Shown here: positions 41,867 to 63,169 of the stretch, one piece after another
Layout of the letters: every line of letters starts with the position of its first letter
How positions within the stretch are numbered: the first letter of the stretch is position 1
Assembly (NCBI GenBank): GCA_050246315.1
Contig: JBFWWG010000009.1
Location: 32,001-96,000 of the forward strand
Source: Nitrospiraceae bacterium
Lineage (GTDB): Bacteria > Nitrospirota > Nitrospiria > Nitrospirales > Nitrospiraceae
DNA length: 64,000 bases
Direction of reading: 5' to 3'
Translations under genes and position numbers: made by a program
Notes under the pieces: model-generated
What the model saw: the letters and a program-made list of their open reading frames with translations, nothing else
The model's database searches: none
What the model was told of the DNA's origin: nothing

Positions 41867-42110
41867 AACCCGTGCGATTCATGAACGATTCTACGGCAAT
41901 GACGGATTCGCTGCTGCGACGAACCGGGACAGTCGAAGGTGTTTTTCCGGCGGCGTATCAAACAGTGAGGGAGGAACACGCCCGTAGGGTGCTTCTCCGC
42001 AGGCGCTGTTACGGAAATACGATGAATAGCCGACGGTTCAAGCGAAGGTTGGTAGAGAGAGGCTTCGCCTGACAAGCTGCCGGTTCACACGAAGTGTGGT
42101 ATGGCGGGCG
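41867..42110 (+). ncRNA. Candidate structured RNA, copy A (unnamed)
   Basis: 33-nt and 21-nt blocks identical to the 62.9-63.0 kb element; two CGGTTC-stem-GAA-stem modules with compensatory changes. Confidence 0.5.
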
Positions 42111-42365
42111 GGCTCGCCGCTCAGTCTCTCAACATGCTGTTTCACTTATGCTTCGGGCTATTCACGTCTCCGGGCGTCCGTCTCACGACGTGATTCCATC
42201 ATTTCGTCACGAATCATCATGAATCATGCGGGTTCGGCCACCATACCCACGAGTCGGCTGCTAGGCTGAAGCAGTTGCAGGACCTAGCCGGTACCCAACT
42301 TGCCTCCTTTGTGATCTGAACGGGCACCTGGCTCGCGCTGAGATCCTTGCGGAAGGAGACGGCTC

Positions 42366-42938
42366 ATGAATAAACGACTGGTCACGGGACTTGGAGTTCT
42401 GGGCATGATGATCTGGCTGGCTTTGTTTTCCGCCGGTCTGCTTCTGGATTCGGCGCCCTATCGGAAGGCGATTGCGGCGGCGATGAAGGCCAATCAGTCT
42501 GTACTCCTGGAAGATGTGATCCTGGCTTCGCTGCTTTTTACTCCGACGAACGTGGCCTTCCTCAGCGTCCTGGCCGGATTTCTGGGCGGGTGCACCAGTG
42601 TCCTGAACGATCGCCATCTCTTGCAGGAGGAGATCCATCGGGCGCAGGAGGTGGGGGACCAGGGGCGGGTTTCACGACTGGAGCGCCGGATCAGATTCAT
42701 GGGAGAGTCCCCCATTGTGTCGATGATGCGGGGGTTCGTGGTCTATCTGGCCATCATCTCGGGCATCTTTCTCGTGATCTCCAATCCATTTGATAATCCA
42801 AGCATGGATCAATTCATCCGATTGGCCGGCTTGTTCTCGGTCGTGGCCTTCATGATGGGGTATGATCCGACCCGGTTCGAGGACCTGTTGGAAAAAGTGT
42901 CTTCGCTCAGCCAGAAGCCACCACCGCGCAATCCGTGA
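42366..42938 (+). CDS. Hypothetical 4-TM membrane protein
   Basis: 190-aa ORF after AAGGAG; four hydrophobic segments. Confidence 0.65.
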   Translation: MNKRLVTGLGVLGMMIWLALFSAGLLLDSAPYRKAIAAAMKANQSVLLEDVILASLLFTPTNVAFLSVLAGFLGGCTSVLNDRHLLQEEIHRAQEVGDQGRVSRLERRIRFMGESPIVSMMRGFVVYLAIISGIFLVISNPFDNPSMDQFIRLAGLFSVVAFMMGYDPTRFEDLLEKVSSLSQKPPPRNP

Positions 42939-42972
42939 CGGTCTCTGGAGGCGGGGAGAGGCTCTCGGGCGA

Positions 42973-43665
42973 CTACGTCCGGCGGGAGAAGAAGCGTGAA
43001 AGCCGGGTGAAGAACGAGGCGAGACTGAAAATCAATCCAGCCACGCTTGGGTACAGGCGGGAAGGGGTCGTTCCCACCGTTTCGTTGAAGGGTGAAAACG
43101 TGATCAGCAACAGGCAGCCGTCGTCGGTGGACGTTTCGCGGTGCAGACTGCCCGCTGCCGACCGGTGGTAATCGCCGGGGAAGAGAGCTTGTCCTTCGCA
43201 GACGCACCCGCCCTCCAACACGAACAACTCCTCCACCGCCGCATGCCGATGCGGGGTATGCCGAGTGCCGGGAGCGAATCGGACCAGCGCCGTCGTCCGC
43301 TGCGTGACCGGATCGTTGTAGAGCACCTTCATCTTCGTGCCGGCCGAGACGTCCAACCAGGTCCCTTCCGAGGCCCTGATGTAGGTGAACTCACGGCCGG
43401 CGGAAGCCTCCCGCTGCGGTTCAGCCTGAATGCGGGTCATGAGTTTGGCTCTGAGATCGGTCGGCGGCGGGACGGGGTCGATCAACGTCGCCAAGCGGGC
43501 GGCCGTCTGCCGGAACTCCGCCACTTCCGCCCTGGCCGTTTGCGCGTCGGCGCCTTCATCCTCGATGAGCCGTTCGAACTCACTCAGCTCCTGTCCGTCA
43601 AGGGCGTTCAGCGCAAGTAACGGAGCTTGGTCCTGTCGATCATCCGGTCGTGCCGGCGTCATCAT
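42973..43665 (-). CDS. Anti-sigma factor with ChrR-like cupin domain
   Basis: ALNALD..E..EFE..PVPPP.DLRAKLM anti-sigma N-terminus; PHRH..VEELFVLEG..PGDYH..GSLH cupin; overlaps the sigma stop. Confidence 0.8.
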   Translation of the reverse strand: MMTPARPDDRQDQAPLLALNALDGQELSEFERLIEDEGADAQTARAEVAEFRQTAARLATLIDPVPPPTDLRAKLMTRIQAEPQREASAGREFTYIRASEGTWLDVSAGTKMKVLYNDPVTQRTTALVRFAPGTRHTPHRHAAVEELFVLEGGCVCEGQALFPGDYHRSAAGSLHRETSTDDGCLLLITFSPFNETVGTTPSRLYPSVAGLIFSLASFFTRLSRFFSRRT

Positions 43666-44255
43666 ACGAGTCCTTTTCCATAGGGAGCGAGAAGATCGCG
43701 CAATTTGATCATGCCCAATCGCATGCGCGTTTTGATGGTTCCCAGAGGAATGCCGAGCCGTTCCGCGATTTCACTCTGACTGTACCCGCCGAAGTACGCC
43801 ATCAGAATCGGCTGCCGCTGTTCCGATGATAGAGCCTTCAGCGCCTGCTGCACGATCCGCCGTTGTTGCTCTTCGGCGGACTGAGCCTCGGGCGTTGCTT
43901 GATTCGATGGAAGCCACTCCGCCTCTTCCATCCGCGTAAATGTGGCCCGTTCGGTGCGCCCGGCCCTGATACGGTCGATGGCGCGGGTGCGGGCGAGGGT
44001 CATGAGCCAGCCTCCGGCGGTGCCCCGTTGTCGATCGTAGGTATGGGCCTGCTTCCAGACTTGCGTGAAGACGTCCAGCATGACCTCCTCAGCCGTATGA
44101 GTATTCCCCACGAGACGGAGGATCAGTCCATAGACTTGCGGGCTGGATTGATCATACAGCACGCCAAAGGCGGTTTGATCGCCCTGTGCCGTCTTGGCGA
44201 TGAGGCCGATCCATTCCTGCTCTTTCGCCGATTGCTCAGCCAGCACGCCAACCAT
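43662..44255 (-). CDS. ECF RNA polymerase sigma factor (SigK/RpoE-like)
   Basis: GDQTAF..LYD, AEEV..DVF..VW, AYFGGYSQSEIA..LGIPLGTIKTR. Confidence 0.93.
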   Translation of the reverse strand: MVGVLAEQSAKEQEWIGLIAKTAQGDQTAFGVLYDQSSPQVYGLILRLVGNTHTAEEVMLDVFTQVWKQAHTYDRQRGTAGGWLMTLARTRAIDRIRAGRTERATFTRMEEAEWLPSNQATPEAQSAEEQQRRIVQQALKALSSEQRQPILMAYFGGYSQSEIAERLGIPLGTIKTRMRLGMIKLRDLLAPYGKGLV

Positions 44256-44274
44256 CCGTTCGGTCTCCTCACAT

Positions 44275-44305
44275 CTCTACGAGATGAGCGGAGGTATTGG
44301 ATTCA
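44275..44305 (-). promoter_or_regulatory. Putative ECF promoter (autoregulatory)
   Basis: Minus strand TGAATCC-N17-CGTAGAG, 20 nt before the sigma ATG. Confidence 0.65.
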
Positions 44306-44438
44306 TGGCGATCCATGGTCTGTCCGGACAAAAGATCCGGTAAGGTGGGACCCAAAGGATAGCACTCGGCAATCGGTCGTTCAACCACCCGTCCCAATCG
44401 TCCGAAATTGTAAATGTGAATAATGAAAGTCGAAATCT

Positions 44439-44469
44439 GAAATCCAAACGCTCCGCCGCTCCCGTAGAG
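44439..44469 (+). promoter_or_regulatory. Putative ECF promoter for the globin-DUF4331 cluster
   Basis: GAAATCC-N17-CGTAGAG, mirror of the motif at 44275-44305. Confidence 0.65.
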
Positions 44470-44548
44470 GCAAACAGGAATTCATGCAACGGAGTTGAGA
44501 AAGAGGAGCACTTCAAGGTCGGTACTCATTTGACAGGAGGGAGCAACG

Positions 44549-45058
44549 ATGAAGATAGGGAAGGCAGGATGGACCTCGTGGATGGTGATCGGGTTGCTGG
44601 CGATCGCGATCCCGGGCTGCAACATGATGGAGTCATCGTCGGGTGGGAGGACGGCGGATCGGTCGCTCTATGAACGGTTGGGAGGCAAGCCGGCGATCAC
44701 CGCGGTGGTGGACGATTTCGTGGCTCGGGTGGCGGCCGACAACCGGATCAACGGGAAATTCGCCAATGCCGACATCCCTCGACTCAAGATGATGTTGGTC
44801 GATCAAGTTTGTGAAGCGTCCGGGGGACCGTGCAAGTACACGGGGCGCGACATGAAGGCGACCCATGCCGGGATGCAGATCACCGGCGGTGAATTCGATG
44901 CCTTGGTCGAGGATCTGGTGGCCACACTACAGAAGTATAAGGTCGGCGATCGCGAGAAGAAGGAGTTGCTCGGCGCGCTTGGCCCGATGAAGGGGGACAT
45001 TGTCTCCTCCCCCGCCGCCATGGGGCCAAAAGAGGACGACCTGAGGCAATCCAATTGA
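44549..45058 (+). CDS. Group 1 truncated hemoglobin with lipoprotein signal
   Basis: SLYERLGG, VDDF, SGGPCKYTGRDM..H; IAIPGC lipobox. Confidence 0.88.
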   Translation: MKIGKAGWTSWMVIGLLAIAIPGCNMMESSSGGRTADRSLYERLGGKPAITAVVDDFVARVAADNRINGKFANADIPRLKMMLVDQVCEASGGPCKYTGRDMKATHAGMQITGGEFDALVEDLVATLQKYKVGDREKKELLGALGPMKGDIVSSPAAMGPKEDDLRQSN

Positions 45059-45162
45059 TGAGCAGTTCTGAATCCAAAGAGTATTTCCATCAACGGTCGG
45101 CCATGTAGCCGGCTGGCGCTTCTATCACTAGTGGCGCTTACTCCAACAAGGAGAGACAGACC

Positions 45163-46710
45163 ATGACACAACCAGCCATCGTGCGAAGACCCACGAGGAT
45201 GAAACGGAGACTCCGGACGACGGTCCGGCTGGCGACGCTCGCCGTCGGCGCTATCGGCGCAATCGGCGCAATCGGATTGACGGCTGGGGCGGTGATGGCG
45301 TCCAGCCACCGCGAGGCCCCGTTCATCACGGAATTGCCCAAGGTGGATGGCACGGATTTCTACATGTTCCGGAGCTATGAGCCTGGCCGACAGGATTATG
45401 TGACCATCATTGCCAACTATCTGCCTCTGCAGGCGCCATACGGAGGGCCCAATTACTTTCAATTGGACCCCGAGGCCATCTATGAGATTCACATCGACAA
45501 CAACGGAGACGCGAGGGAAGACTTGACCTTCCAATTCCGGTTCAGGAACAGCCTGCAAGATCTGACTGTGCCGGTCGGACCGAGCGGCCAAACGAAAGAT
45601 ATCTCGATACCGTTGATCAATATCGGCCCGATTTCGTCGGGGAATGTGCAGGCCCAGAACATCATCGAGACCTACACGCTCGATGTTGTGAGGGGGCATC
45701 GCCGGACCGGGAACCGGCAACCGGTTGTCAATGCCGGCAACGGCTCGACGACCTTCAGCAAGCCGCTCGATAACATCGGCAGCAAGTCCATTCCGAACTA
45801 CGAGCAGTACGCGGACAGTTTCATCCACACCATTGCCATCCCCGGCTGCGGGTCGCCCGGTAAGGTGTTCGTCGGACAGCGCACCGAACCCTTTGTCGTG
45901 AATCTCGGCGAGGTGTTCGACCTGATCAACCTGAATCCCCTCGGACCGCCGGATGGCCGGCGCAACATCCTCGACGACGCGAACATCACCTCGTTGATCC
46001 TGGAAGTGCCGATCGCTTGTCTCACATCCGGCACCGAGAAGGTCATTGGCGGATGGACCACGGCGAGCTTGCGGCAGGCGCGCCTGTTGCGGACCAGCGC
46101 CACCTTCGATCGTCCGGCGTTGGAGGGCGGAGCCTGGACACAGGTCTCGCGTCTCGCCATGCCGCTTGTCAACGAACTCGTGATCGGATTGAAGGACAAG
46201 AACCTGTTCAATGGTTCCAAGCCGGAGCATGACGGGCAATTTGCGGATTACGTCACGAACCCTTCGTTTCCATTCTTGATCCAAGCCCTGTTCCCAAGCG
46301 CGCCGGCGCCGACTCTCTTCCCGAGGGCGGATCTGGTCGCGGCGTTTCTTACCGGGATCAACACATCGGTGACCGGCAATCTCAATCAGCCGGCCAACGT
46401 GGTGGCATCCGAAATGATGCGGCTCAATACCGGCATTGCCCCCACCCCGAAGGTGGCTCAGAACAATCTTGGTGTGGCCGGGGGGGACCTGGCGGGATAT
46501 CCGAACGGGCGTCGTCCCGGCGACGATGTGGTCGATATCACCTTGCGCGTGGCCATGGGGAAGCTCATTTCCGCGGGGTTATTCGGCAACCCGAGCCAGG
46601 CGCCGGCCGGCGAAGCGCCCCTCACCGACGGGGCTCTGGTGAACGCCTCCTTCTTCGACGAGGCGTTTCCTTATCTGAAGACGCCCATTCCCGGCGCGCC
46701 GATTCAGTGA
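45163..46710 (+). CDS. DUF4331 family exported protein
   Basis: ASSHREAP, D.TDFYMFRS, QVSRLAMPLVNE, GYPNGRRPGDDVVD. Confidence 0.88.
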   Translation: MTQPAIVRRPTRMKRRLRTTVRLATLAVGAIGAIGAIGLTAGAVMASSHREAPFITELPKVDGTDFYMFRSYEPGRQDYVTIIANYLPLQAPYGGPNYFQLDPEAIYEIHIDNNGDAREDLTFQFRFRNSLQDLTVPVGPSGQTKDISIPLINIGPISSGNVQAQNIIETYTLDVVRGHRRTGNRQPVVNAGNGSTTFSKPLDNIGSKSIPNYEQYADSFIHTIAIPGCGSPGKVFVGQRTEPFVVNLGEVFDLINLNPLGPPDGRRNILDDANITSLILEVPIACLTSGTEKVIGGWTTASLRQARLLRTSATFDRPALEGGAWTQVSRLAMPLVNELVIGLKDKNLFNGSKPEHDGQFADYVTNPSFPFLIQALFPSAPAPTLFPRADLVAAFLTGINTSVTGNLNQPANVVASEMMRLNTGIAPTPKVAQNNLGVAGGDLAGYPNGRRPGDDVVDITLRVAMGKLISAGLFGNPSQAPAGEAPLTDGALVNASFFDEAFPYLKTPIPGAPIQ

Positions 46711-46740
46711 GTTGGCGTGCAGAATCACAAGGGGGACAAC

Positions 46741-46977
46741 ATGATTCGACTCTCATTCAGAGCATTGGCCATCGGTTGCCTCTTGGCGCTGGCCGGCTGC
46801 GGCGGTGATGACGGGGGAGGGCCGGATGGCCAAGCTGGCGGAAGCGGTGGGTCCGCCGACTCGTTCACGACGATGGTGTCTCAGATCGCCTCCACATCGC
46901 TTGAAGATGTCGAGCCGGCCGACGTGGATCGGCTTGCACCTTCTCAACCGGAGGCGACCGAACCGGCCGCACTGTGA
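46741..46977 (+). CDS. Small acidic lipoprotein
   Basis: LAGC lipobox; ATG after GGGGGA. Confidence 0.65.
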   Translation: MIRLSFRALAIGCLLALAGCGGDDGGGPDGQAGGSGGSADSFTTMVSQIASTSLEDVEPADVDRLAPSQPEATEPAAL

Positions 46978-47040
46978 GACGAACGGACGGGCGGGGAGGG
47001 ACAGGCCTCTCCGCACCCCAACCGGACAGGATGGTGAGAG

Positions 47041-48231
47041 ATGCATGGGTATGAGTTGAGGATGACGGTCTTGGCCGCCGCGCTGCTTCTGATCCCCCTG
47101 GCCCCATGGGTCGGCGCTGCCGCCCCGTTCGTTCCCTCGGACGACAAGCAAGCGCTGGAGCGGGTCAGGGAGCGGCCCCTTGATCCCACCTGGCAAGAAC
47201 TGCGACGGCTCCGGGAGGCGGTGAAGCGAAATCCGGGCGACGTGCAGCCGGCCGTGCGATTGGCCGCGCGCTATGTCGAACGGAGCCGGAGCGAGGCCGA
47301 TCCCCGGTATCTTGGGTATGCAGAGGCTGTCCTTGCGCCATGGTTGGCACGAGAGCAGCCTCCGGCGGAAGCGTTACTACTGAGGGCGACGATCCGGCAG
47401 AGCCTGCATCAGTTCGACGAGGCGTTGGCTGATCTTCAGACTGTACTGAAACGACGTCCTGACTCGGCACAGGGCTGGCTGACGGCGGCGTTGATCCATC
47501 AAGTCCAAGGCGACTATGACCAGGCTCGACGCCACTGTGCGCCGCTGATTCGATTGGCCGGAGAATTTGTCGCGGGAGCTTGTCTCGCCTCGGTCGGAAG
47601 CCTCACCGGTCAAGCGGCGGTCAGCTACGATCTGCTTGATCGGGTCTCTCGACGCGGGGCAACCGTGAGTCCTGGAGAACGCCAATGGGTGGCGACGTTG
47701 TTGGCCGAAATGGCGGAGCGACGCGGAGCTGCGGCGGAGGCGGAAGGCCATTATCGAGCGGCCCTGCGGATTGGCCTCCATGATCCCTACCTGTTGGCGG
47801 CCTATGGAGATTTTCTGCTCGATCAGGGCCGCGCCGAGGAGGTGATCGGACTGCTCCAGCAGGACCGTAAGGCGGATGCGCTGCTTCTCAGGCTGGCTCT
47901 CGCAGAGCGGGCGGCGAATCACCCCAACGCGGCGGCGGATCGGGAGATCCTGCGGGCACGGTTCGAGGCGGCCCGGCGCCGAGGGGATCGCACCCATCTC
48001 CGAGAAGAAGCAAGATATGCGCAGCATATGTTGGAGAATGCCGGCCAAGCGTTGCGCCTGGCCCGAGAGAATTGGGCCATCCAGAAGGAGCCGGCCGACG
48101 CCAGAATCTTGTTGGAAGCAGCTACGGCGGCTCAGGACCCCGCGGCAGCCCGTCTCGCCACAGATTGGATCGAGGCGAACCATCTTGAGGACGTGCGTCT
48201 GAACGGGCTCGTCACCCGGAGCAAGGAGTAA
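47041..48231 (+). CDS. Exported TPR-like protein
   Basis: Signal peptide and Ala/Leu-rich helical repeats; in DUF4331 cluster. Confidence 0.75.
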   Translation: MHGYELRMTVLAAALLLIPLAPWVGAAAPFVPSDDKQALERVRERPLDPTWQELRRLREAVKRNPGDVQPAVRLAARYVERSRSEADPRYLGYAEAVLAPWLAREQPPAEALLLRATIRQSLHQFDEALADLQTVLKRRPDSAQGWLTAALIHQVQGDYDQARRHCAPLIRLAGEFVAGACLASVGSLTGQAAVSYDLLDRVSRRGATVSPGERQWVATLLAEMAERRGAAAEAEGHYRAALRIGLHDPYLLAAYGDFLLDQGRAEEVIGLLQQDRKADALLLRLALAERAANHPNAAADREILRARFEAARRRGDRTHLREEARYAQHMLENAGQALRLARENWAIQKEPADARILLEAATAAQDPAAARLATDWIEANHLEDVRLNGLVTRSKE

Positions 48232-48234
48232 GGT

Positions 48235-49374
48235 ATGGCGCGCGTCGCCACCCATCTCGGTGCACTGATGTTGTGGATCATCATGCCGACTCTGCCGGCT
48301 TTCGCGCACAAACTCAGCGATAGTTACCTCACCCTGTCGGTCGAGACGAATCGGATCGACGGACGATGGGATATCGCCCTGCGCGACCTGGACTATGCCA
48401 TCGGTTTGGATGCCGACGATGACGGACAGTTGACTTGGGGGGAGGTCCGGTCGCGCCTGCCGGCGATTCACGACTATGTGTTCTCTCGGCTCGCCGTGAG
48501 CATGGGCGAGGCGACCTGTGCCGGCCGTCCGACGGCCGACCTCCTGGATCACCACACGGACGGCACCTATGCCGTGCTGAAGTTCTCCCTCGATTGCCCG
48601 CACCCGACGCTTCGAATGGACATAAACTACAACCTCTTGTTCGATGTGGATCCTCAGCATCGCGGGTTGGCTCAGATCGTGAGCGGGGAAGGCGTTACCG
48701 GCGTCATATTTTCACCCGAGCACGCGCAACAGTCCGTGAGGGTCGGCGCGAGCCGTCCGTGGGGCACGTTGCTGTCGTACGCACATGAAGGTGTGCATCA
48801 CATCTGGAGCGGGATCGATCATCTGCTGTTTCTGATGGCGCTGCTCCTCCCGTCCGTGTTGCGTCGTCGCGACGGGGTCTGGGAGGCGGTGCCGGCCTTT
48901 CGCCCGGCACTGATTCAAACGGCGGCCGTCGTCACGGCCTTCACGGTGGCCCATTCCATCACGCTCACGCTTGCCGCGCTGGACCTGGTCCGGCTCCCTG
49001 CTCGTCTCGTCGAGTCTGCGATCGCCGCCTCGGTCGTGCTGGCTGCGCTCAATAATATGGTGCCCTTGGTGTCCGAGCGACGGTGGGTCGTGGCCTTAGG
49101 GTTCGGCCTGCTGCACGGGTTCGGATTTGCCGGCGCGCTGGCCGATCTGGGGCTTCCACCGAACGCCACCGTGGCAGCGCTCGCCGGGTTCAATCTCGGC
49201 GTCGAGGCGGGACAACTGTTGATCGTCGCCCTGTTCCTCCCGATCGCCTACGGTTTCCGCCGCATGCGGATCTATCAGCGCGGAGTGGTCGCCGCCGGCT
49301 CCTGTTCCATCGCGGCCTTGGCCCTCTGTTGGCTGATCGAGCGCGCCTTTGATGTCAGCCTCTTCCCGTCCTGA
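48235..49374 (+). CDS. HupE/UreJ family membrane protein with N-terminal periplasmic domain
   Basis: GVHHIWSGIDHLLF, TAFTVAHSITL, FGLLHGFGFA, FNLGVEAGQ. Confidence 0.88.
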   Translation: MARVATHLGALMLWIIMPTLPAFAHKLSDSYLTLSVETNRIDGRWDIALRDLDYAIGLDADDDGQLTWGEVRSRLPAIHDYVFSRLAVSMGEATCAGRPTADLLDHHTDGTYAVLKFSLDCPHPTLRMDINYNLLFDVDPQHRGLAQIVSGEGVTGVIFSPEHAQQSVRVGASRPWGTLLSYAHEGVHHIWSGIDHLLFLMALLLPSVLRRRDGVWEAVPAFRPALIQTAAVVTAFTVAHSITLTLAALDLVRLPARLVESAIAASVVLAALNNMVPLVSERRWVVALGFGLLHGFGFAGALADLGLPPNATVAALAGFNLGVEAGQLLIVALFLPIAYGFRRMRIYQRGVVAAGSCSIAALALCWLIERAFDVSLFPS

Positions 49375-49443
49375 GAACAGGGCCGGTGCTGAGTCGAGAC
49401 GGCGACGACGGAGATTGACGACGCAAGAGCAAGGTGATACATA

Positions 49444-49470
49444 GTCACACGAATTACAAATTCGTAATAC
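49444..49470. promoter_or_regulatory. Putative NikR operator
   Basis: GTCACACGAATT-ACA-AATTCGTAATAC imperfect palindrome just downstream of TTGACG-N17-TACATA and upstream of nikR; resembles the GTATGA-N16-TCATAC type site. Confidence 0.6.
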
Positions 49471-49487
49471 TGGTACGGGAGTGTGCT

Positions 49488-49904: not shown

Positions 49905-49906
49905 CC

Positions 49907-54070: not shown

Positions 54071-54143
54071 GAGCTGAAAGGTGAGGCGGCGAGGAGCCAG
54101 CGGTGGATCGCAATATGGTGAATTCCGCCATTTGAACAAGGGG

Positions 54144-55955: not shown

Positions 55956-56038
55956 CAGGGGCTCTTGGGACTGGGTGTCAGCATAGTTCACGCGCAGCGA
56001 TGCAAAGTGGGCAATCTTAGCAGCGCGGCCATGAGAAT

Positions 56039-56440
56039 TCAATTGATGTGACGAGGCGGGCGGCGCTCGTGCGGATCCTCCACCCGTACGGCCCGGATCT
56101 GCGTTGAGGTCACGGCGGTGAGGATCGTGGTGACAATGCTGATGACAAGTGCCCCGAGTATGGCGGGCCAGAGCCCGGTCACGATGAAGCCTTTCACCAG
56201 GTAGGCCACGAGTTCCAACAGCACAGCGTTAATGAGGACCATGAACAGGCCGAAGGACAAAAGAATGAGCGGGAGCGACATGACGTAGAGAAGCGGCCGC
56301 ACGAGCGCGTTCAGGATCGTCAAGACCAAGACCGCCGCCAGGCCGGCCGACCAGGACTGCACCTCGATCCCGGGCACGATGCTGATCGCAAGAAAGACGG
56401 CGATGCCCGTCACGAGAATTCGGGTGAGCAATCCGGTCAT
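56039..56440 (-). CDS. 4-TMS 'phage holin family' (YvlD-like) membrane protein
   Basis: NALVRPLL..SLPL..LSFGLF..LINA. Confidence 0.8.
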   Translation of the reverse strand: MTGLLTRILVTGIAVFLAISIVPGIEVQSWSAGLAAVLVLTILNALVRPLLYVMSLPLILLSFGLFMVLINAVLLELVAYLVKGFIVTGLWPAILGALVISIVTTILTAVTSTQIRAVRVEDPHERRPPRHIN

Positions 56441-56489
56441 GGGGTCCTCTGCAGAATCACCTGCGGCACGCCCAACGGTATCGGTGGCG

Positions 56490-56816
56490 CTACTTGGCCT
56501 GAGCCGGTTTGTTGGAGAAGAGCACCTCGGTGGCGAGCAGACGGTCTCCTTGCTTTGTGGTTTCCACCACAACCCGATCTCCGATTTTTGGAAGCGGTCC
56601 GGTGGTGCCGGCTCCGCGCGGGCGGAATTGGGTCTTCTCGTTCAACAGGATCGAGTGTTTCTCGCCCTTTTGCGTGGTCACGTCAAGCTGTGTGCCGGTG
56701 ATACCGGTGACAGTTCCGAGCACATGTTGACCGGACCCGTGGGCTGCGAGATCCGGGACGTGAGCTACGAGCAGATACGCCACGAGCAGCACCGATGCAT
56801 ATTGACGAAATAACAT
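56490..56816 (-). CDS. Small exported beta-rich protein
   Basis: Signal peptide, AHG..QHVLGTVT, KIGDRVVV. Confidence 0.65.
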   Translation of the reverse strand: MLFRQYASVLLVAYLLVAHVPDLAAHGSGQHVLGTVTGITGTQLDVTTQKGEKHSILLNEKTQFRPRGAGTTGPLPKIGDRVVVETTKQGDRLLATEVLFSNKPAQAK

Positions 56817-56847
56817 CACAGGCGTACTCCTTGGTTGTGTGGTTGTG

Positions 56848-57486
56848 CTAATGGCGATGTGAGGGTTGGCTGGCAGCCTCATGGCCATGAAGAAACTGGT
56901 CGAACTCCGCCTCCTCCTCGATCTGGTGCTTGCTTTTGGGATTGAGCTGCTTCATCTCGTCGAGTTCCTCCGGCGTAATCTGAGGCAGGTGGCGGATGAA
57001 GTGCACGAGCTGCCAACTGTCCAGATCCTTTCGGGGATCGCCTTCGCCCCAGCCCGGCATCGCCGTGAACCGCACACCGTAATGGATGGTGTAGAAGAGG
57101 ACACCGTCCGACATGTCCTGGGTGTCGGGCAGGCGGAGATCCGGTGCGGGCGGGTAGACGTTCTTTCCGAGCTTGGTTTGGCCGCTGCCGTCGTTGGCGT
57201 GACAACTCGCGCAATGGTCGGCGAAATGCGCCCGCGCCTCGCCCAACGCGGCGGGCGAAAGCGGAACGGGATTCTGGGCTTCACGCCATTCCTTGGGGAT
57301 CGCCCAGTATCGTGCGGTGCGCGCCGCCCAGATTTCAATCGCGCTGGGTTGCCCCTTGGCGCTGAAGCCGCTGGAAAAGTGGTCGTAAGCCATCCACCCT
57401 GCGCTGGCCAGCCCCACGGCCAGTACGATCAAGAGGAGATACCAGAGCGTCTTGATGGGGTTCAGAATGAAACCTGGCATACGCAT
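56848..57486 (-). CDS. Membrane-anchored monoheme cytochrome c
   Basis: CASCH, PPAPDL, GVRFTAMP axial Met; His-rich tail. Confidence 0.88.
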   Translation of the reverse strand: MRMPGFILNPIKTLWYLLLIVLAVGLASAGWMAYDHFSSGFSAKGQPSAIEIWAARTARYWAIPKEWREAQNPVPLSPAALGEARAHFADHCASCHANDGSGQTKLGKNVYPPAPDLRLPDTQDMSDGVLFYTIHYGVRFTAMPGWGEGDPRKDLDSWQLVHFIRHLPQITPEELDEMKQLNPKSKHQIEEEAEFDQFLHGHEAASQPSHRH

Positions 57487-57601
57487 CGAGCGTGTCCTGA
57501 GAGCGGCACCGATCAGATGGATCGAATATCTGGATCTAGTATAACGGGACGGGACGGGAGCCCGCCACTTTCCGCCTGATCGTGAGACCGTGTTTCCGCC
57601 G

Positions 57602-58480
57602 TCACGTCGCCGTTTGATTATGACGAAACCGCACCACCAACCGGCCGAACAGGCGGAGCAGGGCCACGGTTGTGATCGGAGTATAAAGCAACAGGCCCAT
57701 CAACCCCAAGAGCGATTCGCCGATCCAGAACGTCACGCTCAGGTTAAACAAGAGCACGCCGTAGTACAAGCCGCAACCCAGCAGCACTCTGAGTGTCGTC
57801 GATCTCGATGGTGCCGCCTCGCGATCATCCGGCAGGTTCCGATCGATCACGCGGTAGATGCCGAGCGCGATGACGCCCACGACCACCCATCCGAAAAAGT
57901 TAGCGAGCGGAACGCCGAAATAGACTCCGGCTTCCGGGTAGAAATAAATCTTACCGAGAAACCACCGATCCCCCCGCAGCGCCGCCGGGTCGATGACGAC
58001 GTCGATCAAGGCGAATAGCAAGCAGCTGAGCCCGAGCACCGGCCAGGAGCAGCGCGTGGCTGGCTCGAAACTCAGGGCCGGCAGGAGTGTGCGCGGCTGG
58101 TCCAGTGGCGCTTTATGCTGGATAGACCGAGTCGGCAGGAGGAACCACAGGGCCAGGCAGTAGCTGGCGAACAGCAGAAACGGAAACGAGAGCGAGTCCA
58201 TGAATGGCACATCCCAGAGATACAGTTCTTGTCCCACCGTCGAGCCGGTGTAGAAGTACCATCCGAATGGGATGCCGGTCCTGGTGGACGACAGTTCGCA
58301 CAGCAGGGCCGTGAGCCAGGTATTGATGAAGAAAAATCCGGTGCGCAGCCAGCCGAGCAGGCGGGAGGCCGCGAACAGAAACGCCGCCAGGAACAGGAAG
58401 ACGTAGGGGCGGAGAAGAACTGTCCTGCCGAGTAAGACTAACGTATCCACGATGTCGAAGTGCCCAGCGTCAAGCGGCAT
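57602..58480 (-). CDS. CruF/DUF422-like (carotenoid biosynthesis family) membrane protein
   Basis: E..S..TGIPFG.Y.Y, D.VIDP, YFGVPLANFFGW. Confidence 0.8.
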   Translation of the reverse strand: MPLDAGHFDIVDTLVLLGRTVLLRPYVFLFLAAFLFAASRLLGWLRTGFFFINTWLTALLCELSSTRTGIPFGWYFYTGSTVGQELYLWDVPFMDSLSFPFLLFASYCLALWFLLPTRSIQHKAPLDQPRTLLPALSFEPATRCSWPVLGLSCLLFALIDVVIDPAALRGDRWFLGKIYFYPEAGVYFGVPLANFFGWVVVGVIALGIYRVIDRNLPDDREAAPSRSTTLRVLLGCGLYYGVLLFNLSVTFWIGESLLGLMGLLLYTPITTVALLRLFGRLVVRFRHNQTAT

Positions 58481-58552
58481 TCGTCAATCGCGGAAAATCC
58501 TTGCCCCTACCTGTGCCTGACACGATTGACAGTTGACCATTGACGAATGACC
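58481..58552. repeat. Period-7 GTCA/TGAC repeat between hpnA stop and next start
   Basis: ttgacag-ttgacca-ttgacga-atgacct right arm; tcgtcaatcg left arm. Confidence 0.75.
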
Positions 58553-58559
58553 TCTCTGC

Positions 58560-59546
58560 TTATGCATACCCATGATCTCGGAACCAGCGCACGGCCTTCT
58601 CCAGCGCGATCTCTACCGGAGGCTGCGACAGCCCGAGTTCGCGTACAGCCTTGGAACAATCATAATGCATTTTGTACTTGGCCATCTTCACCCCCTCCAG
58701 CGGAATGCGCGGTGGGCGGCGGGTGACGTAGTCGGCCAACCAGCGATTCAGGTGGGCCAAGGGAAGAATCAGTCCTCGCGGGAGCTTCACGCGCGGCACG
58801 GGCACGCCGGTGAGCCGGCTCAAGATCTCGAAGATCTCCTTCAGACTCAAATTTCTATTACCCAGGATATACCGTTCGCCGATTCGACCTCGGTCCATCG
58901 CGGCCAGGTGGCCGGTCGCCACATCGTCCACGTCGATCAAATTCATGCCGGTTTCGATGTAGGCGAACATCCGGCCCTTCATGTAATCGACGATCATCTG
59001 TCCGGTCGGTGTGGGCTTCACGTCCCCGGCACCGATGGGGGCACTGGGGTTGACGATGACGACGGGAAACCCGGCCTGCGCGAGCTTGAGCACTTCCTGC
59101 TCGGCCAGATACTTTGAGCGCTTGTAGTCCCCGGCCATCTGGGACAGTGAAACCGGGGTCTCTTCCGAGCCGACGCCCCCATTCGGCGGCAGGCCGATTG
59201 CGCCGATCGTGCTCGTGTAGACCATTCGTTCGATCCCGGCCTCTCGGGCCGCTTCCATGAGGTTGACAGTCCCCTGCACGTTGATGTCGTAAAACAACGA
59301 AGGGTCTCTGGCCCACAGGGCGTAGTGGGCAGCGACGTGGTAGACCCGCCGGCACCCCGTCAGGGCCTGGCGCAAAGAGGGACGGTCACGCAAATCGCCG
59401 ATGGCGCGCGAAACGGAAAGACCCTGAAGGTTGCGAAGGTCGCTGGCGGGCCTGGCAAGCACACGCACCTCGCGTCCGGCGGCAGCCAGGGCTCGGACCA
59501 CGGCCGCTCCGACGAAGCCGGTGGCGCCTGTGACCAAGGTCGTCAT
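58560..59546 (-). CDS. hpnA: Hopanoid-associated NAD-dependent epimerase/dehydratase
   Basis: VTGATGFVG, HVAAHY.LW, YKRSK, GDVKPTPTG. Confidence 0.85.
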   Translation of the reverse strand: MTTLVTGATGFVGAAVVRALAAAGREVRVLARPASDLRNLQGLSVSRAIGDLRDRPSLRQALTGCRRVYHVAAHYALWARDPSLFYDINVQGTVNLMEAAREAGIERMVYTSTIGAIGLPPNGGVGSEETPVSLSQMAGDYKRSKYLAEQEVLKLAQAGFPVVIVNPSAPIGAGDVKPTPTGQMIVDYMKGRMFAYIETGMNLIDVDDVATGHLAAMDRGRIGERYILGNRNLSLKEIFEILSRLTGVPVPRVKLPRGLILPLAHLNRWLADYVTRRPPRIPLEGVKMAKYKMHYDCSKAVRELGLSQPPVEIALEKAVRWFRDHGYA

Positions 59547-59550
59547 GGGG

Positions 59551-59723
59551 AGGGCTGAACGCTGAGGGCTGAGTGCGGGGTATCGAGGAAGGGCTGAGTG
59601 CTGGGTGCTGAGTGCTGAGGCGGAGAATGAGGAATCCTGCAATGGACAGACGGGTAAGAGCCGAAAATAAGAAGGACGGTGGCAATCAGCGTCGTCTTCA
59701 ACTCAGCACCCAGCACTCAGCAC
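59551..59723. repeat. Period-7 TGCTGAG/CTCAGCA inverted-repeat hairpin
   Basis: gctgagtgctgggtgctgagt (59593-59613) is the perfect reverse complement of 59701-59721. Confidence 0.9.
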
Positions 59724-60613
59724 TAATTCTTGCGGGCGACGATGTACCGGGCGAGTTCCCGCAGTGAATCGGCCGTCCTGCCGAACGAGGCCAGATGGTG
59801 GGTGGCTCGCTCGACGCACTCGTCCGCGAGCTTTCGCGCGCCGTCCACCCCGTAGAAGGTCGGGTAGGTTTTCTTTCCCCGTTGCGCGTCGGCGTTCGGG
59901 CTCTTGCCGAGTTCCTCCTGCGTGCCGGTCACGTCCAACACGTCGTCCGCGATCTGAAAGGCCAGCCCGATCTGTTCGGCATAGGCAGTGAAATTCGCCA
60001 GTTGGTCGGGCGGGGCGCCGGCGGCGATCGCGCCCATTCGGACAGCGGCACGGATCAACATGCCGGTCTTGTGCCGGTGGATGGTTTGCAGGGTGGGTAG
60101 GTCGATATCCTGATTCTCGGCTTGAATATCGAACACCTGCCCGCCGACCATGCCGAGGTGGCCGGCACCCACCGCAAGTTCGTAAATCAACTGGACTCGG
60201 CGAGGGGCGTCCAGTCCATTCCCGTCAGCCGGCCCGCTACAGAGTTCAAACGCCAGTGTCAGAAGCGCATCGCCTGCCAGGATCGCCATGGCCTCGCCGA
60301 ACACCTTATGGTTCGTCGGCTTGCTCCTGCGGAAGTCATCGTTGTCCATGGAAGGTAGGTCGTCATGGATCAAGGAATACGTATGAACGAGTTCCAGCGA
60401 TGCGGCAACCGGCAGCATAGCGGGGGCTTGGCATCCGAGCGCCTCCGCCGTGGCAAGGGTCAGGATCGGACGAATCCGTTTCCCCCCCGCGAACAGGCTA
60501 TAGCGCATGCTCTCGTGCAACGTGGTCGGTTGGGTCTGCGCGGAAGGGTGGACCGACTCCAGAAACCGATCGACGAGTTGGCGCTGCTGTTCAAGATATC
60601 GGCGTATGTCCAT
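59723..60613 (-). CDS. ispA: Farnesyl/geranylgeranyl diphosphate synthase
   Basis: GGKRIRP, SLIHDDLPSMDNDDFRR, GQ..D, KTG, FQIADDVLD. Confidence 0.9.
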   Translation of the reverse strand: MDIRRYLEQQRQLVDRFLESVHPSAQTQPTTLHESMRYSLFAGGKRIRPILTLATAEALGCQAPAMLPVAASLELVHTYSLIHDDLPSMDNDDFRRSKPTNHKVFGEAMAILAGDALLTLAFELCSGPADGNGLDAPRRVQLIYELAVGAGHLGMVGGQVFDIQAENQDIDLPTLQTIHRHKTGMLIRAAVRMGAIAAGAPPDQLANFTAYAEQIGLAFQIADDVLDVTGTQEELGKSPNADAQRGKKTYPTFYGVDGARKLADECVERATHHLASFGRTADSLRELARYIVARKN

Positions 60614-60787
60614 TGGTTGAATTGATCGATGCGTGCCGGCTGATCGTAGCCGTCCGTATAGGGTAGGTTGGTTCCAAAACGGGATTGATTGCTCAGAGCG
60701 GTCGTGACATGGTGATCTGCCGAGAACCAGCCGATTGGTTGTCGGGAAATCTGCTGTCAGTGCTCGTTCTGCCTTTAAACGCGCGCG

Positions 60788-60816
60788 AGGTTAACAGGGA
60801 GCCGCGCACCTGTCAA
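60788..60816 (-). promoter_or_regulatory. Putative sigma70 promoter for ispA-hpnA
   Basis: Minus strand TTGACA-N17-TAACCT. Confidence 0.55.
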
Positions 60817-60878
60817 ACGGATCAACGGGTGGCGACTCCGACCATGGCTCCATTGTGCGCTCGTTGGTCCCTCGGCAC

Positions 60879-60908
60879 TTGTCATTCAAAAGGGCGGTTG
60901 GCTATACT
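60879..60908 (+). promoter_or_regulatory. Putative sigma70 promoter (leaderless transcript)
   Basis: TTGTCA-N18-TATACT ending 7 nt before ATG 60916. Confidence 0.6.
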
Positions 60909-60915
60909 GCGCCCC

Positions 60916-61185
60916 ATGAGCATTCGAATGGCCGGCGGTGATTGGGAGCCGCTTCTGTTGAATATCGAGCCGCGCCGGTGTCCCATCTGCCAACAGGGTT
61001 TGTATCGCGACCAAACCCTTTTCCGCGGCGGCTGGTCCCGCTGTACGGTCTGTAATGAATTCGTCCATTACAGTTGCCTCGCCAGCGGAAGATTCAGGTT
61101 CCTGAAGCGGCGACCGAGAATCTGTAAGCGGTGCGCCTCCTCGGCGTCCCCCTCCGCTCCCAAATCCGGCAATCAGGCCGCGTGA
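60916..61185 (+). CDS. Small C4HC3 (PHD/RING-v-like) zinc-finger protein
   Basis: CPIC-x17-CTVC-x4-H-x2-C-x15-CKRC. Confidence 0.65.
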   Translation: MSIRMAGGDWEPLLLNIEPRRCPICQQGLYRDQTLFRGGWSRCTVCNEFVHYSCLASGRFRFLKRRPRICKRCASSASPSAPKSGNQAA

Positions 61186-61535
61186 GCCTCTCCATCCCGA
61201 TGTCGCCTGATGTGCCGGGCGGAGCCTCTGCATCGCAAGAGCGATTCGCGACGGTCGTTCGAATCCTACTGGCTCCCGTCATCTGTTGTTGGAGCGGCCT
61301 GTTTACCGCCGATTTTGTTCTGAGCGGGTATTACACGTGGCCGCGAACGAGCCGCGTGTTCGTTCTGACGATCACATTGGTCATCCTGGCCTACGAATTT
61401 GTGTACAAAGAACAGCGGACCCGCGAGGTTCCCGGGTCCGAGGCCCGGGCTCGCAGGGCGGTGCTGTACTCCTGTGTCATTCCGTATGCCGTCGGCGTTG
61501 GGCTGTTGCTTCTGCTGATTTCAGGTCGGTTCTAG
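61182..61535 (+). CDS. Small 3-TM membrane protein
   Basis: GTG overlaps the upstream TGA; three hydrophobic segments. Confidence 0.6.
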   Translation: MSLSIPMSPDVPGGASASQERFATVVRILLAPVICCWSGLFTADFVLSGYYTWPRTSRVFVLTITLVILAYEFVYKEQRTREVPGSEARARRAVLYSCVIPYAVGVGLLLLLISGRF

Positions 61536-61612
61536 TCGGTGTGCACCGGGCGGACAGGACCGTCGCCGAGAAACCCGCTGGCTCCTCTGTCGCGTGAGCC
61601 GATCTGCCCACT

Positions 61613-61987
61613 ATGGCACCTATCTATCAGAGCGGGGCGTTCATCCAGCAATGTTTCGCCGTGCATCCGCTCTGCCTCACGGTCAAACGGTTGGAACATG
61701 GCGAGCGCCTGTTGCTCGGCTGCACGTCCTGCCACCTCACGCATCGTATCGGCCTGCGGACGGTTGTAGCGCGTCTGTCCGCCGTGCCTACAGAGTCGGG
61801 CGAAGCGCCGCCCGTGGGGAGCGAACGGACGGCTGCGGCGGCGCTAGCGGATTGTGCGGCGCAACATGCCCCCGCGCTGTCGGTTCGCCGCTTGGAGACG
61901 GTAGAGGATCTGATGGGGCTACGGTGCAGCGAATGCCGCCGCGTCTACGAACTACACGTCCAAACATTCGAAACGCATCAACGGTGA
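61613..61987 (+). CDS. Hypothetical protein with duplicated C-x3-H...CxxC motif
   Basis: CFAVH...CTSC and CAAQH...CSEC repeats. Confidence 0.65.
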   Translation: MAPIYQSGAFIQQCFAVHPLCLTVKRLEHGERLLLGCTSCHLTHRIGLRTVVARLSAVPTESGEAPPVGSERTAAAALADCAAQHAPALSVRRLETVEDLMGLRCSECRRVYELHVQTFETHQR

Positions 61988-62082
61988 ACGAGAAGATGCC
62001 CCTTGGCGGAGGATTGCACCGGGCGGACGCCGAATCGCATAGCCGCCGGCATCGGTGGGTATGTCGGTGGGTATGATGGACC

Positions 62083-62724
62083 GTGTTGCCGAGTGACGGC
62101 CAGATGCAGGAGCCGCTCGGTTTCGAGCCGGCTGAAATCAGATTGCTGGCCGATCGCGCATTTTTCACGACCAAAGCCAGGATCAGCCGGAGGATCCGCT
62201 CGACGTTGGAACGCCTGCGCGCGCTCCTGCAGGATGAGGTATCACAGACCACATTGCTCGCCCCGCCGGGGTTCGAGCCGACCAAGTCTCAGTTTGTGAA
62301 GGGTGAGCATCTGGAAGCCTGCCCGTATCAGTACCTCGACTATCCCAAGCACTTTGCCGGAGATGAGACGTTCACCTTTCGGACGCTCGTGTGGTGGGGA
62401 CACCATGTCGCCTGTGCCTGGCTTCTCGGGGGCCGGCTGGTGCCAATGTACAAACAGCGCCTCATCGACCGGTATCAGGACTTGGCGGGGCAGAATCTTG
62501 AACTGTCGCTGGCGCCCACCTTATGGGAGTGGAAGCGAGGCGAGGGCTATACCCTGCCGCTCCTGCCCTCCAGCCGGGCTCAGGCCGCGGCGGTGCTGGA
62601 GCGGCGGACTTCGATCAAGATCGCCAAATTCGTACCGCTGGACGATGCGTCGTTGCAGGACGGCCGCCTGGCGGAAGCGGGCTGCGAGGCGTTCCGGCGC
62701 CTCCTGCCGCTCGTCCTGGAATGA
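62083..62724 (+). CDS. Conserved-looking hypothetical protein
   Basis: 213-aa ORF; KGEHLEACPYQYLDYP..F..TFRTLVWWG. Confidence 0.65.
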   Translation: MLPSDGQMQEPLGFEPAEIRLLADRAFFTTKARISRRIRSTLERLRALLQDEVSQTTLLAPPGFEPTKSQFVKGEHLEACPYQYLDYPKHFAGDETFTFRTLVWWGHHVACAWLLGGRLVPMYKQRLIDRYQDLAGQNLELSLAPTLWEWKRGEGYTLPLLPSSRAQAAAVLERRTSIKIAKFVPLDDASLQDGRLAEAGCEAFRRLLPLVLE

Positions 62725-62754
62725 GCCGAGAGTCCGGACGCTGCGGCTCCGGAT

Positions 62755-62783
62755 TTGTCTCGCTCCGCGAACTCCGCTAGACT
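62755..62783 (+). promoter_or_regulatory. Putative sigma70 promoter upstream of the repeated structured element
   Basis: TTGTCT-N17-TAGACT. Confidence 0.6.
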
Positions 62784-62799
62784 ACGCACCACTTTCTGC

Positions 62800-63168
62800 G
62801 CCGATCGTGCAAATTCATTCACGGCAATCAGGACGATCAACAGGTGGACGGTTCAACCGAGGTTGCTATGGCGAAGAAAGAGAAGAATCACTGGCGGGGT
62901 TCTCCGGCGGAGTATCAAACACTGAAGAAGGGATGCGCCCGTAGGGTGCTTCTCCGTCGGCCCAGTTACGAAAATACGATGAATAGCCGACGGTTCAAGC
63001 GAAGCTTGGTTTCAAAAAACGAAGAGAAGCGAATCACTGGAGGAATTTCTCCGCGGGCGTCGATGAAGAAGGCTGCGCCTGAGGAGCCCGCGGTTCAAGC
63101 GAAGCTTGGTATAGAAGGGCTTCGCCCGATGAGCCGCCGGTTCAACCGAAGGTTGGGATGGAGGGTGG
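62800..63168 (+). ncRNA. Candidate structured RNA / long leader, copy B (unnamed)
   Basis: Four CGGTTCAA hairpin modules, internal duplications, homology to 41.9-42.1 kb. Confidence 0.5.
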
Positions 63169-63169
63169 T

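Follow-up and report, generated by a model that had tools for sequence, protein, structure and literature searches.

Why do two intergenic regions of one Nitrospiraceae genome share blocks of identical, apparently hairpin-forming sequence? The question arises in a window of 64,000 nt (GCA_050246315.1, contig JBFWWG010000009.1, positions 32,001-96,000, forward strand; coordinates below are 1-based within it) and concerns copy A at 41.9 kb and copy B at 62.8 kb, both intergenic by the crude gene calls that we used. A preliminary description of this stretch reported shared blocks of 21 nt (41979-41999 = 62936-62956) and 33 nt (42015-42047 = 62972-63004), which a check of the sequence bears out, and proposed that the two copies are a dedicated multi-domain RNA, either a tandem riboswitch-like leader or a protein-sponging small RNA. 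We suggest that both belong to one family of non-autonomous, modular, hairpin-forming interspersed repeats, of the same kind as repetitive extragenic palindromes (REP), bacterial interspersed mosaic elements (BIME) and miniature inverted-repeat transposable elements (MITE), and we put the probability of this explanation, taken as a whole, at roughly three in four. The units of the family are dispersed, lineage-restricted and structurally constrained; part of them are MITE cargo and the rest stand at precise junctions, their arrays turn over, and units are present in RNA libraries. The description of a structured, modular and variable element of no recognised RNA class is upheld, and the dedicated two-copy regulatory RNA, which five lines of evidence oppose, is not.

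A dispersed family of structured repeat units

We name the repeat family U. Its units have a long form of ~90-100 nt and a short form of 47 nt, and by module we mean the 19-nt pattern CGGTTCANNCGAAGNNTGG. Six modules had been noted in the window. Five of them (42034, 42081, 62991, 63091 and 63138) match the pattern with 0 mismatches, where 0.27 matches are expected and 0 of 100 shuffles reach five; the sixth, at 62849, has a shortened loop and was recognised by eye. The BLAST alignment of copies A and B has one stretch of 111 nt with 87% identity (E 2e-37) and another of 81 nt with 80%. The element is not, as had been stated, present twice. In the window's own genome (G000, 4.39 Mb), a scan allowing at most 2 mismatches finds the module 135 times (72 forward, 63 reverse) in 88 clusters, against 11 matches (5 + 6) for the reversed pattern, which served as control, and neighbouring modules are most often 46-47 nt (12 cases) or 86-100 nt (27 cases) apart. 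Searched with a profile built on the ~95-nt unit, the genome gives 152 nhmmer unit matches, which fall into 96 arrays: 61 singles, 21 doubles, 9 triples, 4 arrays of four units and 1 of six. No array mixes strands (0/96), and only 8 of the 96 are overlapped by gene calls over more than 50% of their length. The covariance model R1 (103 positions, 17 pairs), built from 60 units that share less than 90% identity with one another, has at least 128 matches in the same genome at E <= 0.001, a lower bound because 150 of ~2,000 first-look candidates were scored. A repeat dispersed on this scale (128 covariance-model matches, 96 arrays) is the first reason why the inference of a dedicated RNA is unsupported.

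Outside this genome, R1 finds the family in 15 of 18 genomes of Nitrospiraceae and in 0 of 132 genomes that represent 21 further families of the phylum, with 26 candidates scored per genome. The genomes of the genus (G000 and its congeners G001, G002 and G003) have 102-146 modules each, and G007, which belongs to a different genus, has 72; most of the other 36 relatives, a set that includes the unpublished genome G009, have counts near the control level. Among the matches listed for the exact pattern in public species-representative genomes, 76 of 80 are Nitrospira, Nitrospiraceae or Nitrospirota records. The U family was found only in Nitrospiraceae, with lineage-restricted bursts. Its conservation is at the nucleic-acid level and not coding, as had been proposed.

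The view that the element falls in no known RNA class also held when Rfam was searched: the whole window contains 0 matches at or above a gathering threshold. With permissive filters the best score was 17.7 bits against a threshold of 47.9 (c-di-GMP-II-GCG, on the minus strand, inside a MITE arm), and the others, 14.5-16.1 bits, went to unrelated families. Full-text passages on Nitrospira intergenic, REP or MITE repeats, supplements aside, yielded no description of U repeats; those passages contain a table with counts of REP candidates for Nitrospira moscoviensis (PMC12306157), a figure legend that names Nitrospirales (PMC6006769) and MITEs in other contigs (PMC12542641).

The long unit begins with an A/G-rich linker. 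Next come AATCACTGGAGG and TTTCTCC, two segments able to form a small hairpin (P0), and then the helix P1, two bases, the hairpin P2 and the tail GGTAT. P1 is an 8-bp outer helix around conserved unpaired stretches and a small hairpin, P1a, whose loop is variable and TTC-like. P2 is a 5-bp hairpin; its loop, GAA, is conserved to at least 90%. In the type II variant the interior is replaced and bears the CGCCC-GTA-GGGTG hairpin, which is indeed found in both copies, while the 47-nt short unit has P1a and P2 only. Units occur solo or head-to-tail, up to 6 per array. The second duplicated unit noted in copy B, AATCACTGG..TTCTCC, was located at 62886 and 63032.

The stems vary in a compensatory manner, as first noticed by comparing the two copies. 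Over the 60 non-redundant units the covariation score is 0.325, compared to 0.125 in shuffles, and is reached by 0 of 500 of them; controls in which the structure was slid along the alignment give at most 0.084. The three-helix structure pairs 89.7% of 978 cells versus 76.9% in shuffles, and RNAalifold, unaided, recovered P1 and part of P2, with compensatory changes in 8 of 11 predicted pairs. Since shuffle and slid controls are both exceeded, the claim of covariation stands. Covariation is, however, equally expected of repeats that fold as DNA.

Nothing in the data points to a constraint on one strand only. Mismatches of the G-T and A-C types number 27 versus 16 in P1 and 8 versus 22 in P2. 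In arrays at gene starts, where the + sense is transcribed (36 units), the figures are 18 versus 16, and in arrays trailing tRNA genes, where the - sense is transcribed (20 units), they are 14 versus 13; between these two groups there is no difference in strand-specific wobble (Fisher p = 1). The independence of stem mismatches from the transcribed strand is a second reason to regard the dedicated RNA as unsupported. Such a pattern is what one expects of decay from well-paired source copies or of constraint at the DNA level, and not of ~130 functional RNAs of one sense. Each strand carries one C-GAA-G hairpin: on the first it is P2, on the second the complement of P1a. A side remark of the preliminary description, that these loops would also fit mini-hairpins in single-stranded DNA, is in line with the repeat explanation.

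Constraint that is equal on both strands could also point to a function of the DNA itself, with U serving as a site for nucleoid proteins, gyrase, an IHF-like protein or another chromosome-organising factor, as has been proposed for BIMEs. The intergenic, high-copy and mosaic-modular nature of the repeats and the conservation of loop and linker motifs would agree with this. We attach the least credence to it, as there is no known binding protein, a copy number that ranges from background to ~140 among related genera fits poorly with a core role in the chromosome, and the compensatory stems indicate intrastrand folding rather than a duplex recognition site.

MITE families carrying U units, and copy A

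We recognised two MITE families in G000. The 17-mer taken from the terminal inverted repeat (TIR, ~17-20 nt long) of the first, MITE-1, has 240 matches (121 forward, 119 reverse) that form 81 convergent pairs with a modal size of ~211 nt and no open reading frame (ORF); one locus is G000:C1:517107-517471. Among pairs of at most 450 nt, TA stands at the left end in 53 of 73, at the right end in 49 of 73 and at both in 36 of 73, over a TA background of 1.9%, and the commonest flanks are CTA on the left and TAG on the right. The right arm of the element has 65 BLAST and 151 nhmmer matches in the genome, with a sharp 3' family boundary. The family is widespread in Nitrospiraceae: MITE-1 TIR matches number 31-158 in 11 of 41 relatives searched, ten of which have 31-144 each, and 69-158 in each member of the genus, and the control gives 0 matches in both sets. 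MITE-1 has the terminal inverted repeats, small size, many copies and target-site duplication of a MITE; we take it to be IS630-like (TA-duplicating), an assignment made only by the TA/CTAG flank rule. The second family, MITE-2, has 207 TIR matches in 47 pairs. Its basic form is 124 nt long with a central 5-bp hairpin (G000:C4:51917-52040), and its U-bearing variants are 257-293 nt long (for example G000:C4:20438-20706, 269 nt), with longer nested forms; when its flanks were examined for target-site duplication they were asymmetric, and many copies are nested.

Composite MITE-1 copies have one or two U units where the central hairpin would otherwise be. A 369-nt composite with sharp ends is found at four dispersed loci with 83-96% identity, and wherever an array is followed by a MITE-1 right arm its orientation is the same (19/19). 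When the 96 arrays were sorted by context with a script, and the 33 rows left as 'other' were classed by reading, where the sequence after the array gives away the MITE-borne ones, ~24 lay inside MITE-1 and ~19 inside MITE-2 (the script alone gave 23 and 10, the latter 9 + 1 also at a gene start). About 40% of the arrays are thus held in MITEs at a fixed place and orientation. MITE-borne U arrays, copy A among them, are moved by the MITEs.

Copy A, whose features are listed in Table 1, aligns end to end and collinearly with two other composites, and 288 of 389 positions are identical to C1:517095-517483. Its U units stand where MITE-1 has its central hairpin; the right TIR (42217-42233) has 3 mismatches and the left TIR is degenerate. 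The half unit within it has counterparts in composite copies and in copy B (62880-62930), where it likewise precedes the type II unit. At the orthologous locus in G001 and G003 the block is missing, and in G002 the contig breaks within it. Its sequence identifies copy A as a diverged, TIR-bearing MITE that carries U units. A TIR-bounded, TA-flanked MITE copy that two congeners lack is a third reason why a dedicated RNA is unsupported. The genes on either side encode an HtrA-like protease (Trypsin_2 and PDZ) and a 190-aa protein without a Pfam match.

Table 1. Positions of U units and associated features in the window
Feature	Position	Strand	Remarks
Copy A, whole	41868-42233	+	Diverged composite of ~365 nt: MITE-1 backbone and U units
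Left TA flank of copy A	41866-41867		Only the left TA is retained
Half unit (copy A)	41927-41965	+	P0-like hairpin region and 5' strand of P1, no partner strand; a sequence reading
Long U unit, type II (copy A)	41966-42064	+	R1 56 bits, E 1.3e-12
Parts of the preceding unit			Hairpin CGCCC-GTA-GGGTG 41979-41991; P1 41997-42004/42029-42036 (two mismatches); P2 42039-42051 (one mismatch)
Short U unit, 47 nt (copy A)	42053-42099	+	P1a, GACAAGC, P2 42086-42098 (CACAC-GAA-GTGTG); module match 42081-42099
MITE-1 right arm ('c' family)	42100-42233	+	Family repeat, closing with the right TIR
Promoter-like TTGTCT-N17-TAGACT	62755-62784	+	Invariant in G000-G003; flanks 80-98% identical
Degenerate solo P2 module and TATGG (copy B)	62849-62871	+	Short loop; sole module at the locus in G001
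Half unit (copy B)	62880-62930	+	AATCACTGG..TTCTCC, then 5' strand of P1; as in copy A
Long U unit, type II (copy B)	62923-63021	+	R1 66.3 bits (G000:C9:94923-95021)
Parts of the preceding unit			Hairpin CGCCC-GTA-GGGTG 62936-62948; P1 62954-62961/62986-62993 (perfect); P2 62996-63008
Long U unit, type I (copy B)	63020-63121	+	R1 102 bits, E 1.9e-24
Parts of the preceding unit			P1 63051-63058/63086-63093; P1a 63071-63079; P2 63096-63108
Short U unit (copy B)	63110-63156	+	P1a 63117-63127; P2 63143-63155; module match 63138-63156; kept in G000, G002 and G003
Array/gene junction GATGGAGGG	63157-63172	+	Shine-Dalgarno 63160-63165; ATG at 63170

Copy B and the junctions at gene starts and tRNA ends

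Copy B has a different setting. As had been observed, the TTGTCT-N17-TAGACT sequence stands upstream of it and its last module runs into the Shine-Dalgarno sequence of the next gene (Table 1). The former is likely to be the promoter of that gene, and the ATG at 63170 is the likely start of a lipoprotein whose signal peptide ends in LGGC. A consensus promoter scanner scores TTGTCT-N17-TAGACT below threshold and makes no call, and promoter and terminator scans of both regions returned 0 sites. Neither gene beside copy B has a Pfam match, and the downstream one is lipoprotein-like by eye. A weak R1 match (17.5 bits) covers 62784-62878.

The array differs among the congeners. Upstream of the start codon, G001, G002 and G003 have in common the junction TATGGAGG followed by ATG. 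G001 has one P2 module directly before this junction and the start codon; G003 has three modules, in the form of the first module with one long and one short unit after it. G000 and G002, whose flanks are 97-98% identical, each have 4-5 modules that begin with the first module and the type II unit, after which G000 continues with a long and then a short unit and G002 with a short and then a long one. All blocks added at the locus are bounded by a GG-TA-TGG junction. The number of modules ranges from 1 to 5 among the four congeners, in agreement with the variable number first proposed, and since both number and order differ the array must expand, contract and rearrange quickly. That they differ even at 97-98% flank identity is a fourth reason for which the dedicated RNA finds no support. 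We regard copy B as a U-unit array in the variable leader of a lipoprotein gene, as its sequence indicates.

Where a P2 is followed by a short unit, for example at 63096-63127, its sequence (..GCGAAGC..) is complementary to the P1a of that unit (..GCTTCGC..), and minimum-energy folds therefore often give a 9-10-bp helix in place of two hairpins. Within arrays, this pairing of P2 with the next P1a is a possible alternative conformation according to the folding model.

With regard to their neighbours, the arrays are found in every intergenic configuration. There are 62 between co-directional features (39 sense to both, 23 antisense to both), 20 between convergent and 13 between divergent genes, and 1 lies at a contig edge; array orientation in G000 shows no tie to the local gene strand. 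The occurrence of both orientations, including between convergent genes and antisense to tRNA genes, is the fifth reason why the dedicated RNA is unsupported. Two situations outside the MITEs have a fixed junction, and ~10 arrays have other contexts.

In the first, ~27 of the 96 arrays adjoin a gene start, where the array is followed by GGTATGGAGG, 4-8 nt and the start codon and stops 2-3 nt before the Shine-Dalgarno box. The genes that follow are mixed: they include LeuA, FlgC, ribosomal protein L25, a response regulator, LemA and many exported proteins or lipoproteins, as judged by eye from the N-termini. Units of U are also found in RNA libraries. Part of the copy B stretch is contained in 18 RNA-library runs from 10 studies, its array is covered by contigs of four RNA runs, and a 252-nt contig bridges a unit into the lipoprotein gene; at several other loci, too, contigs continue from the last module into the downstream gene. 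These contigs carry no information on strand, ends or level, and DNA carry-over is possible. The bin sums of ~1,100 for the last module in two runs arise because many loci share this module.

The model of the preliminary description, a cis-regulatory tandem leader or sponging RNA whose modules would bind a ligand or an RNA-binding protein and define a regulon, has several points in its favour. The helices covary strongly around conserved unpaired stretches, a sequence just 5' of P1 is able to pair with GGAGG, ~27 arrays finish 2-3 nt ahead of a Shine-Dalgarno sequence, roughly half of the genes downstream of these encode exported proteins or lipoproteins (by eye), and units are present in RNA libraries. 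We nonetheless consider the model very improbable. The leader position accounts for just ~27 of 96 arrays, as against 14-16 antisense to tRNA genes, ~40 inside MITEs and 20 between convergent genes, and the downstream genes share no function; U arrays do not have the constant position and sense, or the related genes, of a cis-acting leader. Copy A is missing in congeners and the modules of copy B number 1 to 5, there is no Rfam match and no strand-specific wobble. Sponges of CsrA/RsmA present repeated GGA motifs in hairpin loops, whereas the loops of U are GAA and TTC-like.

In the second situation, ~16 arrays adjoin the 3' end of a tRNA or transfer-messenger RNA (tmRNA) gene on the opposite strand, with CCA followed by TA and by the P2 hairpin in the sense of the tRNA. 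Of 47 tRNA/tmRNA genes predicted by aragorn, 14 have an antisense array at the 3' end, and in 8 the module lies exactly 2 nt past CCA; two further arrays adjoin a tRNA at a contig end and a 3' fragment of tRNA-Ser. Throughout the genome, TA comes directly after 85 of 135 modules, and TATGG after 50 of 135. The pattern 'T-loop, 12 nt, CCA, TACCA' is found in 38 of 81 genomes of the family (the unpublished genome G070 included), up to 16 times per genome and with 0 matches for the reversed control, and this tRNA-CCA+TACCA junction is on different tRNAs in different genera. The junction is old and also dynamic. At tRNA-Gly, the unit subtype differs between G000 and G003. Among unoccupied tRNA genes of G000, TA follows CCA in about 2 of 30 (by eye), and we therefore conclude that the TA mostly arrives with the repeat.

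Genomic islands have entered at some of the same tRNA 3' ends: ~6.4 kb at tRNA-Gly in G002 (G002:C8:88766-97607), ~32 kb at tRNA-Gly in G001 and ~7.7 kb at tRNA-Ser in G000 (G000:C2:507736-515500), each of which leaves a duplicated tRNA 3' fragment still joined to a U array. In a single case seen, at G000:C3:73763-73832, a U unit adjoins the 5' end of a tRNA-Ser in the same sense, and GGTAT is followed by GGAGGGG.

The precision of these junctions raises the question of whether U has been domesticated as an element of RNA stability, processing or termination, that is, as 3' trailers or terminators of tRNA, tmRNA and mRNA and as protective 5' stem-loops before ribosome-binding sites, much like the REP stabilisers of E. 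coli, with the junctions kept by selection. The junction two bases past CCA, at 14 of 47 tRNA/tmRNA genes and in 38 of 81 genomes of the family, speaks for such a role, and so do the 83 of 96 arrays that lie downstream of at least one gene 3' end, the terminal module of locus B kept in 4 of 4 congeners and the units in RNA libraries. There is also a precedent. According to PMC3152330, the Tuberculosis Rho-independent terminator motif (TRIT) of Mycobacterium is a genus-restricted, conserved, multi-copy hairpin, with 147 copies placed tightly at gene ends. TRIT is, however, a single palindrome at stop codons, whereas U is modular, arrayed, carried by MITEs and found at gene starts as often as at ends. 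The hairpins of U lack a T-run and the terminator scan gave 0 sites in both regions, while other tRNA genes of G000 are followed by recognisable canonical terminators that combine a hairpin and a T-run. The transcribed strand has no enrichment of G-U pairs, ~40% of the arrays are MITE cargo, array size and order vary freely among close relatives, and 13 arrays lie between divergent genes. On balance, we think domestication distinctly unlikely as the explanation of the family.

Propagation of U and its place among known repeats

We infer that new units would be added at the foot of an existing hairpin, be it the acceptor end of a tRNA, the central hairpin of a MITE or the P2 of another unit. 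This would be the work either of an enzyme that acts in trans and recognises single-stranded DNA in its folded form, or of recombination driven by microhomology at the G-rich TGG(A/C)GG junction. Through unequal recombination, arrays would afterwards grow and shrink. Complementarity of the stems would be kept since folding is needed for propagation, and not for a function of each copy as RNA. The repeats are co-transcribed with their neighbours, and about a quarter of the arrays, copy B included, make up a long structured 5' leader whose end lies 2-3 nt before the Shine-Dalgarno sequence; they may thereby influence mRNA stability or translation as a side effect.

A more specific version is that U units are hairpin-homing repeats, copied to the foot of hairpins (after the CCA of tRNA and tmRNA, at the central hairpins of two unrelated MITEs and at their own P2) by an unrecognised Nitrospiraceae enzyme that is neither a REP-associated tyrosine transposase (RAYT) nor another Y1 enzyme, or by an RNA- or single-stranded DNA-templated route. 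We think this unlikely. Were it true, an insertion in the opposite sense would leave the downstream gene with a ready-made structured leader adjacent to its Shine-Dalgarno sequence.

Several observations weigh against the interspersed-repeat explanation. No mobilising enzyme for U was found in G000. That genome has 8 Y1_Tnp loci, of which 4 are intact (~305-320 aa with an N-terminal Y1_Tnp; G000:C20:15809-16744, C4:264712-265620, C4:301843-302808 and C1:568960-569901), and no U array lies within 1 kb of any of the 8. In G007, which has 72 modules and whose genome is 95% complete, there are 0 Y1_Tnp matches. No transposase lies between neighbouring arrays in G000, and both of its DDE_3 (IS630-type) loci, considered as partners of MITE-1, are without the MITE-1 TIR. 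The two ends of the unit (AATCACTGG.. and ..GGTAT) do not form an inverted repeat, and no TIR or target-site duplication belonging to U itself was seen. A comparison of filled and empty MITE-2 copies indicates that the U unit stands in place of the loop and the 5' half of the central hairpin, which is not a clean insertion. Array orientation agrees with local GC skew in 58 cases and disagrees in 38 (p = 0.037), a bias too weak to establish a route through single-stranded DNA of the lagging strand. The terminal P2 module of locus B, kept in 4 of 4 congeners, and the exact tRNA-CCA and Shine-Dalgarno junctions, kept across genera, could reflect functional selection, and the conservation of the GAA loop of P2 suggests recognition by some factor. 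Finally, single-sequence folds are barely more stable than those of shuffles (z -0.04 to -2.2), and with such modest z-scores we do not count thermodynamic stability as support.

A RAYT partner was rejected, as Y1_Tnp is neither flanked by U nor co-occurring with it: genomes with 5-7 Y1_Tnp loci have module counts at background, and the Y1_Tnp genes of G000 are flanked by short direct repeats of the GGGGTCA/TGACCCC type, a repeat system distinct from U. An autonomous element lying between paired arrays was rejected as well, for the ORFs found there are ordinary by eye (a PilM-like protein, a repeat protein, an antiporter, a LuxR-type regulator and a PilZ-like protein). Of the MITE-1 TIR pairs more than 450 nt apart, 8 were examined and none encloses a matching transposase, and no autonomous partner with MITE-1 TIRs was found in G000. 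At G000:C10:34008-35446, an ORF read by eye as an IS110-family transposase lies between two MITE-1 TIR matches and may be an insertion into a MITE copy. No duplication was found at the array ends, including the 5-bp TATGG at arrays adjacent to tRNA genes.

Among the known systems closest to U are REP and BIME sequences, which are likewise high-copy, extragenic, co-transcribed and lineage-expanded, with hairpins whose stems compensate and with mosaic arrangements. There are clear differences. The U unit is a three-helix module of ~95 nt, whereas a REP is a single palindrome of 20-40 nt; U arrays are strictly head-to-tail (0 of 96 mixed), whereas BIMEs alternate orientation; and U has exact junctions at tRNA CCA ends and Shine-Dalgarno sequences and no RAYT link that we could find. 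TA-duplicating MITEs of the IS630/Tc1-mariner-like, 'Stowaway' type resemble the MITE-1 backbone in their TIRs, TA flanks and size (~211 nt), but U units have no TIRs and lie in MITEs only as cargo. The BOX elements of Streptococcus pneumoniae and the mycobacterial interspersed repetitive units (MIRUs) of Mycobacterium tuberculosis are modular intergenic repeats of variable tandem number that are oriented with their neighbours and can reach start codons. U has no sequence relation to either and differs in its three-helix covariation and its tRNA-end junctions; its unit lengths follow no fixed multiple of three, and small overlapping ORFs are not in evidence.

In wastewater treatment and soils, Nitrospira are the principal nitrite oxidisers and complete ammonia oxidisers (comammox). 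The combination of an exact tRNA-CCA junction with no RAYT partner makes the spread of U in them a well-defined question. For the annotation of Nitrospira genomes, the family means ~100-150 structured repeat units and two MITE families per genome that could be mistaken for riboswitches or small RNAs, as copies A and B were, and for assembly it means that a repeat block can break contigs, as happened in G002 at copy A. For gene expression, the arrays create 5' leaders with differences of hundreds of bases from strain to strain, and one tRNA gene in three is trailed by an array.

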